Source: an uncultured bacterium (GTDB taxonomy: Bacteria > Chlamydiota > Chlamydiia > Chlamydiales > JAAKFR01). From it: a DNA stretch of 64,000 nt. The position numbers and the translations under genes are program-made. The notes under the pieces are model-generated. The model ran no database searches, was not told the origin of the DNA, and was given only the letters and a program-made list of their open reading frames with translations. Positions 3,990-42,560 of this stretch are shown here, one piece after another (positions within the stretch are counted from its first letter, which is position 1; every line of letters starts with the position of its first letter). The stretch is taken from the NCBI GenBank assembly GCA_964588495.1, contig CAZPPS010000001.1, positions 53,367 to 117,366 on the forward strand, written 5' to 3'.

Positions 3990-4086
3990 AATTTAAACAC
4001 GAAGGCACGAACATAGAAAGACACAAAGAGGAACTATTTCTTTCTCTTTGTGTCTTTGCATCTTCGTGTCTTTGTGTTGAATTCCT
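3990..4086. repeat. Octamer-array palindromic intergenic element, simple form (A-loop-A')
   Basis: aaacacgaaggcacgaacatagaaagacacaaagag / ctctttgtgtctttgcatcttcgtgtctttgtgtt arms with an aatt..gaatt terminus. It lies just after the tdh stop. Confidence 0.85.
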
Positions 4087-5578: not shown

Positions 5579-5677
5579 CCTAGATATGATACCCTTTAAA
5601 TAGCTTTTAACCCTGATGGAATTGAATAAATATATTAAAAACTCAAATAAGCTGATAAGCCATAGACGCAGTTAGAA

Positions 5678-5768
5678 GCATGATAAGAAGGATATGCTTG
5701 ATCTACTTGATAATAAATTTTATTTTTTTTCTTTATCATGCACATCAAGCATATCCTTCTTATCATGC
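5678..5768. repeat. Perfect 25-bp inverted repeat with a 41-nt AT-rich loop
   Basis: gcatgataagaaggatatgcttgat (5678-5702) is the exact reverse complement of 5744-5768. A related half-copy lies at 55004-55037. Confidence 0.85.
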
Positions 5769-5881
5769 TCTTGGACTGAGCCTTGAATTATGTATTAGTT
5801 TTGTAATTATCTTCTGTTTTTCTGTGTTTTTTTTAACGCTGAGGCATGGAGAACACAGAAAAGAAAGGGAATATTTATTAA

Positions 5882-12029: not shown

Positions 12030-12250
12030 TTTAAACACAAAGGCACAAAGACACAAAGAGATACATATTTTTTTTCCTCTCTGTGTCCTCTGTGTGCTCT
12101 GTGGTTTTTTAAAAATGTCCCGAAAGTTGTTATCAATAAAGGCTTTGAGCCCGTTTTAAAACCACAGAGCACACAGAGAACAGAGAGAAGGGAAAATTAA
12201 TAACTTGCCTCTCTTTGTGTCTTTGTATCTTCGTGTCTTTGTGTTGAATT
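12030..12250. repeat. Octamer-array palindromic element, composite form (A-B'-core-B-A')
   Basis: Outer caaag/ctttg arms enclose inner ctctg/cagag arms and a core of about 50 bp. Confidence 0.85.
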
Positions 12251-14675: not shown

Positions 14676-14708
14676 TTTTTCTCTATGCGATGGCGTGACT
14701 GAACCTAT

Positions 14709-14805
14709 AGAAACGCAAAGAAGCAAAGACACAAAAGCGCAACGAGAAAGAATGCTTATTTTTTTCTTCTCTGCGTCTTAACAGCTTTGCCTTTGCGTTT
14801 CAATA
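14709..14805. repeat. Octamer-array palindromic element, simple, gcaaag variant
   Basis: gaaacgcaaagaagcaaagacacaaaagcgc ... gctttgcctttgcgtttc, between convergent genes. Confidence 0.75.
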
Positions 14806-14825
14806 GTTTTGGACACGACAGGCTC

Positions 14826-22399: not shown

Positions 22400-22475
22400 T
22401 GCAAAAACATAGAGAACACAGAGAAGGAAAAAAAATCTATTTCTCTGCTTCTTTGCACTTTCGCCTCTGAGTTAA
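22400..22475. repeat. Degenerate member of the same element family
   Basis: aacatagagaacacagagaagg ... ttctctgcttctttgcactttcgcctctgag. The arm symmetry is eroded. Confidence 0.5.
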
Positions 22476-42143: not shown

Positions 42144-42338
42144 ATTAAACACAAAGGCACGAAGATACAAAGACACAAAGAGATAGATTTTTTCTTCTCT
42201 GTGCTCTCTGTGGTTTTATAAATTCACCAACACGTTTAATTAATTAAACTTGCGGTTTTTTAAACCACAGAGGACACAGAGTAACGAGAGAAGTTTTTTT
42301 TCTTTGTGTCTTTGCGTCTTTGTGCCTTTGTGTTTTAA
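42144..42338. repeat. Octamer-array palindromic element, composite form
   Basis: It has the same A-B'-core-B-A' order as 12030-12250. Its right terminus abuts the MITE. Confidence 0.85.
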
Positions 42339-42341
42339 TCA

Positions 42342-42500
42342 CTCACCTTACGCAAAAAATCCCCCTATGAGAGAAAAAAGAGATGGTAAGATACAAAGAT
42401 TACGACGAAGCCCAACTCTAGTTGAGTTGGGTGAGGAGTAATCTGCAGTAGATTGCCGTCTATTTTTTTTTCTCGGAGGGGATTTTTTGCGTAAGGTGAG
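42342..42500. mobile_element. 159-bp MITE-like element with perfect 23-bp terminal inverted repeats and a 7-bp direct flanking duplication
   Basis: Left TIR ctcaccttacgcaaaaaatcccc (42342-42364) is the exact reverse complement of 42478-42500. It is flanked by ttaatca at 42335-42341 and 42501-42507. Internal hairpins are present (cccaactc/gagttggg) and there is no coding capacity. Confidence 0.75.
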
Positions 42501-42560
42501 TTAATCACTTAATGTTACGCAACACGGTAGCAACGCATCTTCGGAGTCGGCAAGAAATTC

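Follow-up and report, generated by a model that had tools for sequence, protein, structure and literature searches.

The three composite palindromes of the window, by which we mean the whole 64-kb stretch of Chlamydiae DNA analyzed here, are best explained as gene-less, non-autonomous members, similar to MITEs or REPs, of a widespread family of repeat-built palindromes that also occurs as a nuclease-gene cassette. We put the probability of this reading at roughly 0.6. In other genomes, arms built from the same kind of repeat unit enclose a gene for a GxxExxY protein, and two of the three composites are missing from the corresponding sites of related Chlamydiae.

Three loci share a nested palindromic layout

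An earlier note on this DNA had described three loci with one common higher-order layout. Reading of the sequence bears this out: the arm order A-B'-core-B-A' is present at 12031-12248, 42144-42338 and 49727-49943, far above chance. In the first composite (coordinates here and below carry no strand assignment), outer arm A (about 12031-12062) consists of TTAAA followed by three CACAAAG units with a period of 8, and a T-rich linker leads to inner arm B' at 12079-12108, which holds three CTCTGTG units with a period of 9 and ends in GGTTT(T). The AT-rich core of 49 nt (12109-12157) contains a small internal hairpin and is homologous to the core of the 49k element. It is followed by inner arm B (about 12158-12189; AAAACC and (C)ACAGAG units), the complement of B', by a second linker, and by outer arm A' (about 12210-12248), the complement of A, in which four CTTTGTG-type units with a period of 8 run into TTGAA. 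This composite lies directly upstream of parA. Composite 2 (42144-42338), flanked by an ORF for a small basic protein and by ybeY, comprises A at 42150-42180, B' at 42197-42212, the core at 42213-42265, B at 42266-42281 and A' at 42302-42332. Composite 3 (49727-49943), between a small ORF and mqnC, comprises A at 49734-49764, B' at 49792-49816, the core at 49817-49875, B at 49876-49891 and an A' of the CTTTGCG type at 49916-49938. The core lengths of the 42k and 49k copies are about 42 nt and about 48 nt, respectively.

All arms are tandem arrays of the heptamer CRCRRAG (complement CTYYGYG), repeated every 8 nt in A and every 9 nt in B; at their ends the arrays carry AAAC/GTTT, exemplified in the window by TTAAAC, AAAACC, GGTTT and GTTGAA. 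Each of the 12 composite arms contains at least two CRCRRAG or CTYYGYG units at a spacing of 8-10 nt. Within the window, the A dimer pattern CACAAAGNCACAAAG gave 13 matches with at most one mismatch, compared with 0.04 expected from shuffled sequences, and the B dimer pattern CTCTGTGNNCTCTGTG gave 10 matches with 0.00 expected; both the period-8 and the period-9 arrays were also called by Tandem Repeats Finder.

The arms form terminal inverted repeats of 29-49 nt. The A/A' and B'/B pairing, previously described as perfect, turned out to be incomplete, with a measured complementarity of 79-95% and spacer bases between the units that often do not match. One transition separates the A unit (CACAAAG) from the B unit (CACAGAG), and for this reason neighboring arms can pair as well, with A-C mismatches in the 5' half and G-U wobbles in the 3' half. 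The asymmetry claimed for this local pairing was correct, the 3' half-hairpin being the more stable one in five of the six strand/locus cases. The proposed homology of the cores, in turn, held for the 12k and 49k copies (z 5.7, 0 of 2000 shuffles), but not for the 42k core (z about 2.4 in either orientation).

The nested hairpin is the dominant fold on both strands

For the 12k element, the minimum free energy (MFE) structure is one long nested hairpin, with -104.5 kcal/mol (z -13.6) for the plus-strand RNA, -102.8 kcal/mol for the minus-strand RNA and -62.2 kcal/mol for DNA. Across the composites, the full nested fold reaches -78 to -105 kcal/mol on both strands, the halves and the core folded apart sum to -40 to -60 kcal/mol, and the local-hairpin alternative is 35-50 kcal/mol worse than the nested fold. 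The partition function gives the same picture, with 20-36 expected pairs each for the first with the fourth and the second with the third arm and about zero for the first with the second and the third with the fourth; the exception is the 49k copy, in which the longer arm has surplus units that form local pairs. RNAalifold, run on the three copies, returned an unfavorable covariation term, most pairs being invariant. The nested fold is the dominant fold of the composites.

The earlier note had interpreted the element as a structural switch whose choice of fold depends on the strand. Such a switch would toggle between the long nested helix and two local hairpins and thereby regulate a neighboring gene. 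The pairing potential of neighboring arms speaks for it, as does the fact that the 3' half can close through G-U wobbles at -16 to -31 kcal/mol, while, as transcription proceeds, the first structure to form must be the local hairpin of the 5' half (-14 to -23 kcal/mol). The strand-dependent choice, however, does not exist: the composite is a palindrome, so its reverse complement keeps the arm order, both strands show the same 5'-to-3' layout and the half able to pair through G-U is the 3' one in either case. When MFE and alternative folds were compared on both strands, the nested hairpin won throughout, for RNA and for DNA, and the competing folds were not of comparable stability, the local pairs having essentially zero equilibrium probability. 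Moreover, there is no covariation among the three copies, no Rfam family matches them, the core lacks conservation resembling a ligand pocket, and two of the three elements (42k and 49k) are missing at the orthologous sites of four relatives, which is not how a conserved regulator behaves. We consider a switch highly improbable. The other part of that interpretation, one element sitting within the loop of another, is compatible with the data.

Simpler relatives of the composites lie past stop codons in the same window

Besides the composites, the window contains simpler elements made of the same kind of unit. A simple A-type palindrome at 3993-4081 has 41-nt arms (83% complementary) around a 7-nt loop and begins 11 nt past the stop codon of an alcohol dehydrogenase gene, whereas the element at 22406-22470, 14 nt past a stop codon, is a degenerate solo right half consisting of a B-type arm, a loop and an A'-type arm. 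Two further simple palindromes are found at 30491-30575 (CGCAAAG-type units, 36-nt arms, 75% complementary) and, between convergent genes, at 59456-59539 (CGCAGAG/CGCAAGAG-type units, 34-nt arms, 85% complementary). All seven window elements are intergenic and lie 11 to about 75 nt past a stop codon; none is located in a divergent promoter region.

No GxxExxY gene is present within the 64-kb window, and a Pfam scan of about 56 window ORFs detected no transposase, integrase or other nuclease. None of the terminator-like sites in the window (GC-rich stem followed by a U-tract) coincides with an element end, and promoters show no consistent association with the window elements. At the gathering threshold, Rfam matched two tRNA-Met genes only; in E-value mode it added just generic long-hairpin matches to miRNA precursors, far below threshold.

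The arms are built from a unit that recurs across phyla

Defining family members by arms with at least two CRCRRAG or CTYYGYG units at 8-10-nt spacing, we searched beyond the window. In a scan of a genome collection, pattern CTCTGTGNNCTCTGTGGTTT occurred at no fewer than 117 loci, and the matches listed include Acidobacteriota, Planctomycetota, Nitrospirota, Desulfobacterota, Bacteroidota, Ignavibacteria, Omnitrophota, Verrucomicrobiota, Cyanobacteria, Bacillota, Myxococcota, Methanoperedens-type archaea and two Chlamydiae. Overall, arms of the composite type were found at well over 200 loci in more than 20 bacterial and archaeal phyla. Among 139 seeds, 83 were extended by a third unit and 75 had an inverted partner arm (58 upstream, 17 downstream), while about 32 resemble bare chance matches; a permuted control pattern in viral contigs showed neither third units nor inverted partner arms. 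The A/B' junction pattern recovered at least 120 metagenome loci, mostly hairpins of the form CCACAGAG-nn-CACAGAG... loop ...CTCTGTG-nn-CTCTGTGG.

The 597 arms in the fetched loci share the unit CTYYGYG, which varies by transitions only and is repeated two to five times per arm, most often at a spacing of 9 nt (n = 715; 8 nt, n = 105; 10 nt, n = 68). The period-8 CACAAAG arm is a minority type outside the window. The last unit is followed by G-T-T-W-A (G 80%, T 72% and T 61% in the profile), an ending also seen in arms found without seeding. Spacer dinucleotides between opposed units were complementary in 22 of 130 cases, with 17.1 +/- 3.6 expected by chance. As the spacers do not match beyond chance, it is the unit, in both orientations, that is conserved rather than the pairing between arms.

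Denoting CRCRRAG arms as L and CTYYGYG arms as R, we counted 99 LR hairpins, 192 solo arms, 16 RL pairs, 6 LLRR and 4 LRLR arrangements in about 240 loci. In the RL pairs, the GTTT...AAAC ends point inward, as in B'-core-B; such pairs, whose cores measure 13-47 nt and in some cases contain a GC hairpin, occur in other genomes including two Chlamydiae loci. The six LLRR cases represent true same-orientation nesting. Three of the four LRLR cases are the window composites themselves and the fourth consists of two independent hairpins side by side, so among the roughly 240 loci no cross-complementary L-R-L-R composite was found outside the window. By the sequence of their arms, the window composites can be placed in this CRCRRAG-repeat palindrome family.

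A phage origin of the arms was considered and dropped, as 12 viral matches against 6 for the permuted control amount to no real enrichment. The search of plasmids returned one trivial 36-nt match.

Some arms are embedded in longer tandem repeats of 180-205 nt (L006 144-537, L049 990-1391 and L088 2938-3338) or about 120 nt (L035 1488-1729), in Acidobacteriota, Flavobacteriales and a gammaproteobacterium, where they form chains such as RRLLRRLLRR or LLLLL. In Microcoleus (L008, L024 and L092), a lone arm of three CTCTGTG units lies within a different cyanobacterial inverted-repeat element with outer repeats TGATATCAAATCCGGTTG...

A putative GxxExxY nuclease gene lies between matching arms in other genomes

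All-against-all BLASTP of the stop-to-stop ORFs of the fetched loci yielded one recurrent small-protein cluster, with nine ORFs in eight loci. The protein, of about 125 amino acids, is a GxxExxY protein that matches TIGR04256 (E 1e-45) and PF13366/PDDEXK_3 (E 5e-44). In the arm-seeded loci, its gene has a CRCRRAG arm on one side and a CTYYGYG arm of the matching variant on the other, for example three CACGAAG and three CTTCGTG units at locus L272, or CGCAGAG and CTCTGCG at an archaeal locus (L093). When consecutive L...R pairs 250-2500 nt apart were considered, 5 of 13 enclosed a GxxExxY gene, all at distances of 411-545 nt. Since matching L and R arms bracket the gene in this manner, they can be regarded as the terminal inverted repeats of the cassette.

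Complementarily, we started from the protein rather than the arms. All three protein-seeded homologues (P0141, P0214 and P0133) have CACGAAG/CTTCGTG arms beside the gene, and in 18 over-extended GxxExxY gene calls, reading of the sequences revealed translated arms in at least 10 N-termini, recognizable as the peptides FVVK (from CTTCGTGGTGAAA), TEKHE and EHRETQR. In viral contigs, each of the seven GxxExxY homologues lies between inverted arrays of tandem units, and the unit differs between protein subfamilies: CACAAAG/CACGAAG, CGCAGAT, or AT-rich units of 12-13 nt, the last forming arms of 53-80 nt that are 88-98% complementary and 505-580 nt apart. These sequence contexts indicate that the association between gene and arms in other genomes is real. 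A tblastn search of the nuclease against 50,697 phage records gave no match.

No relative of the GxxExxY family is detectable in the PDB by sequence. An AlphaFold model of the protein (pLDDT 85) has weak PD-(D/E)XK relatives, lambda exonuclease and Cas4, at a TM score of about 0.5; the model thus confirms a predicted PD-(D/E)XK fold, and the fold relatives do not indicate a specific function. PDDEXK_3 has been reported as a family whose function is unknown and which has been transferred repeatedly between bacteria and archaea (PMC3424549). It is very large, with more than 8000 candidates in one search. Neither the repeat family nor its link to GxxExxY was found described in the searchable literature, an absence that is no proof of novelty.

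At two loci, other genes lie between L and R arms. By sequence resemblance, these are Mrr-type restriction endonuclease-like (L201 12182-13217) and YjbR-like (L261 3582-4009). Being single cases, they may represent alternative cargo or coincidence.

Arms also enter gene annotation elsewhere. Database calls such as P0165, P0176 and P0189, among others, and stop-to-stop ORFs in L228 and L238 run into arms, and the resulting spurious peptides (EHRETQR, TEKHE, HREHRE, TEGTEITE, TEDTE, LCVLCG and FVVK) are a recognizable annotation artefact.

Two composites are absent from related Chlamydiae

Judging by its genes and their best homologues, the window belongs to an environmental member of the Chlamydiae. 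For comparison, we used four Chlamydiae genomes (L118, L120, L122 and L295) whose DUF3604 proteins are 78-80% identical to that of the window. All four keep the gene order RNB - DUF502 - two small ORFs - YbeY - CNNM - RNase Y - STAS - DUF3604 - small ORF - MqnC, and neither the 42k nor the 49k composite is present at the orthologous sites. The small ORFs of the relatives run directly into ybeY. Likewise, the small ORF past DUF3604 (49441-49704 in the window) abuts or overlaps the start of mqnC in all four relatives, whereas in the window composite 3 puts about 270 nt between the two, breaking any translational coupling. Not a single arm was found in about 100 kb of the relatives, compared with 14 in the 64-kb window. 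With the gene order kept but composites and arms missing in the relatives, the 42k and 49k composites are indicated to be lineage-specific insertions. The filled sites of the window and the empty sites of the four relatives are too diverged for a target-site duplication or an exact insertion boundary to be defined. For the 12k locus, no syntenic relative was found; in the relatives recovered for it, HlyD is only 52-55% identical and no ParA-type gene follows.

Other palindromes and variable regions of the window

A second, unrelated palindrome abuts composite 2 at 42336-42506. It is 171 nt long, folds at -99.1 kcal/mol (z -19), has outer arms that are perfect over 24 nt (42341-42364 and 42478-42501), is unlike the CRCRRAG family in sequence and is not visible in the orthologous spacer of L120. 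Further unrelated palindromes lie at 5677-5769 and 14691-14820, with 37-nt arms (92% complementary) and 30-nt arms (80% complementary), respectively, and the genome seems to be generally rich in palindromic insertions.

On the minus strand at 34558-34949, downstream of a tRNA-Met gene (34924-34998), a 157-bp unit is repeated 2.5 times with 99% identity, each copy carrying the 3' part of tRNA-Met (GGTTGGTTCAAGTCCGACTGCCGCTACA); these repeats look like scars of serial integration at the tRNA. Between RNase Y and STAS, the window encodes a RING-finger protein of the eukaryote-like E3 ligase type (46024-46572), where L295 has a Fic-domain gene and the other relatives have nothing, so that this interval looks like a variable effector slot. 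Finally, a Gp49-like toxin and an HI1420-type antidote at 61894-62547 look like a HigB/HigA-like addiction module.

A proposed selfish cassette and its gene-less derivatives

We propose that a small selfish cassette encodes the PD-(D/E)XK-fold GxxExxY protein and has the arms as its cis-acting terminal inverted repeats. The gene-less hairpins, which far outnumber the gene-bearing copies, would then be non-autonomous derivatives, and in this Chlamydiae lineage such gene-less copies would have inserted into intergenic DNA just past stop codons. The nuclease, or a partner of it, may recognize the repeated units and mobilize the copies in trans, and effects on neighboring mRNAs, at whose 3' ends a very stable hairpin would form, would be a by-product. 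As to direction, the hairpins may be decay products of cassettes, or they may have come first and served as homing sites for the gene.

Within this model, the A-B'-core-B-A' layout could represent two B-A' units joined as an inverted dimer, an arrangement identical in geometry to an LR hairpin whose loop holds an RL palindrome. The degenerate element at 22406-22470 is a solo copy of this B-A' monomer. Palindromes in the B'-core-B orientation stand alone in other genomes, two Chlamydiae among them, and a nested-element reading of the composites is compatible with the data. At least two of the three composites probably descend from one composite ancestor.

An alternative is that the hairpins are useful to the host, REP-like structures kept at operon 3' ends for mRNA stabilization, transcription stop or insulation, and that the GxxExxY gene merely lands there. 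The position of all seven window elements in intergenic DNA past stop codons, with none in a divergent promoter region, would fit such a role, as would the extreme stability of the folds, and a stabilizing effect on transcripts has been proposed for the cyanobacterial STRR heptamer repeats (PMC2670836). Yet neither U-tract terminators nor promoters are associated with the elements, the 42k and 49k copies are missing from close relatives with the same operons, and the insertion at 49k breaks the coupling between the small ORF and mqnC that is seen in these relatives. A purely structural role would also not need one sequence motif across phyla, and the spacer bases show no co-variation that would maintain pairing. 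A host-beneficial function at 3' ends is not needed to explain the data, and we regard it as an unlikely explanation.

Conserved units with free spacers, the occurrence of both array orientations and the position of one composite directly upstream of parA could instead point to binding arrays, unrelated to mobility, whose 7-nt unit is read by a DNA-binding protein of the host, for example a nucleoid or partition factor. The arrays are absent, however, from relatives with the same parA-type and housekeeping genes; the remaining copies have unrelated neighbors, and in unrelated phyla the units flank a nuclease gene and change with the protein subfamily, all of which leaves this reading with a slim chance. 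Still less credible are integron-like attC sites, with the palindromes marking gene-cassette boundaries. Many copies do end in YYYAAC/GTTRRR (for example TTCAAC...GTTGAA) and small genes lie between hairpins at some loci, but the elements are single and sit between conserved housekeeping genes, there is no cassette array, and the Pfam scan of about 56 window ORFs contains no integrase. Nor are attC sites known to be composed of tandem heptamers. We give this option next to no weight.

Beyond the three composites, the CRCRRAG arms and the GxxExxY gene could constitute a new class of mobile element, in which the nuclease recognizes its own flanking arrays, the unit co-evolves with it, gene-less derivatives have spread through more than 20 phyla, and the composites of this Chlamydiae genome are dimeric or nested forms. 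We hold this broader proposal tentatively, at slightly less than even odds. Linking a gene to a DNA partner makes it directly testable, by asking whether the GxxExxY protein binds or cuts its own flanking arrays. The link would also account for intergenic hairpins in soil, sediment, freshwater and symbiont genomes of many phyla. On the practical side, CRCRRAG hairpins break short-read assemblies and produce false N-terminal extensions, and in the present genome the palindromes by parA, ybeY and mqnC are to be annotated as repeats rather than as regulatory RNAs.

Comparison with known systems

Among known systems, the REP, BIME and REPIN elements of enterobacteria and Pseudomonas, which are associated with RAYT transposases, resemble the composites in being short, multi-copy intergenic palindromes that occur as singletons, dimers or mosaics and usually lie past stop codons. 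Both kinds lack autonomy, and a protein encoded at another site presumably mobilizes them in trans. REPs are defined as imperfect palindromes of 20-40 nt with a GTAG or CGTC tag at one end, and REP/BIME elements come singly, as dimers (head-to-head or tail-to-tail) or as mosaics (PMC3733652). The window arms, in contrast, consist of 25-40 nt of tandemly repeated 7-nt units whose spacers are free, and the three composite sequences as read carry neither tag. Furthermore, the gene linked to CRCRRAG arms encodes a predicted PD-(D/E)XK fold and not an HUH Y1 transposase (Pfam scans of about 56 ORFs, covering the window only, found no Y1 transposase flanked by repeats), and the CRCRRAG unit recurs across more than 20 phyla, unlike the species-specific REPs.

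The likeness to MITEs lies in terminal inverted repeats around a short non-coding interior, in gene-containing counterparts with the same kind of arms in other phyla, whose mobility is putative, and in lineage-specific insertions and nesting. Unlike in MITEs, neither a DDE transposase nor a target-site duplication was seen, and the inverted repeats are internally repetitive.

The units of the cyanobacterial STRR repeats are contiguous, whereas CRCRRAG units stand 1-2 free bases apart and are capped by AAAC/GTTT; the unit sequences differ as well. STRRs nevertheless share with the composites their tandem 7-bp units, their intergenic position, the capacity to form hairpins and an unknown function (PMC2670836; bioRxiv 10.1101/2022.06.06.494920). 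An association with a gene has not been reported for STRRs.

Finally, free-standing homing-endonuclease genes and the intervening sequences of 23S rRNA, in which a small ORF lies between inverted repeats, are similar to the cassette as small selfish genes with inverted repeats, a patchy spread across phyla and a nuclease fold. The CRCRRAG system differs from both in that the GxxExxY nuclease is putative, the repeats are multi-unit arrays and the gene-less copies far outnumber those that carry the gene.
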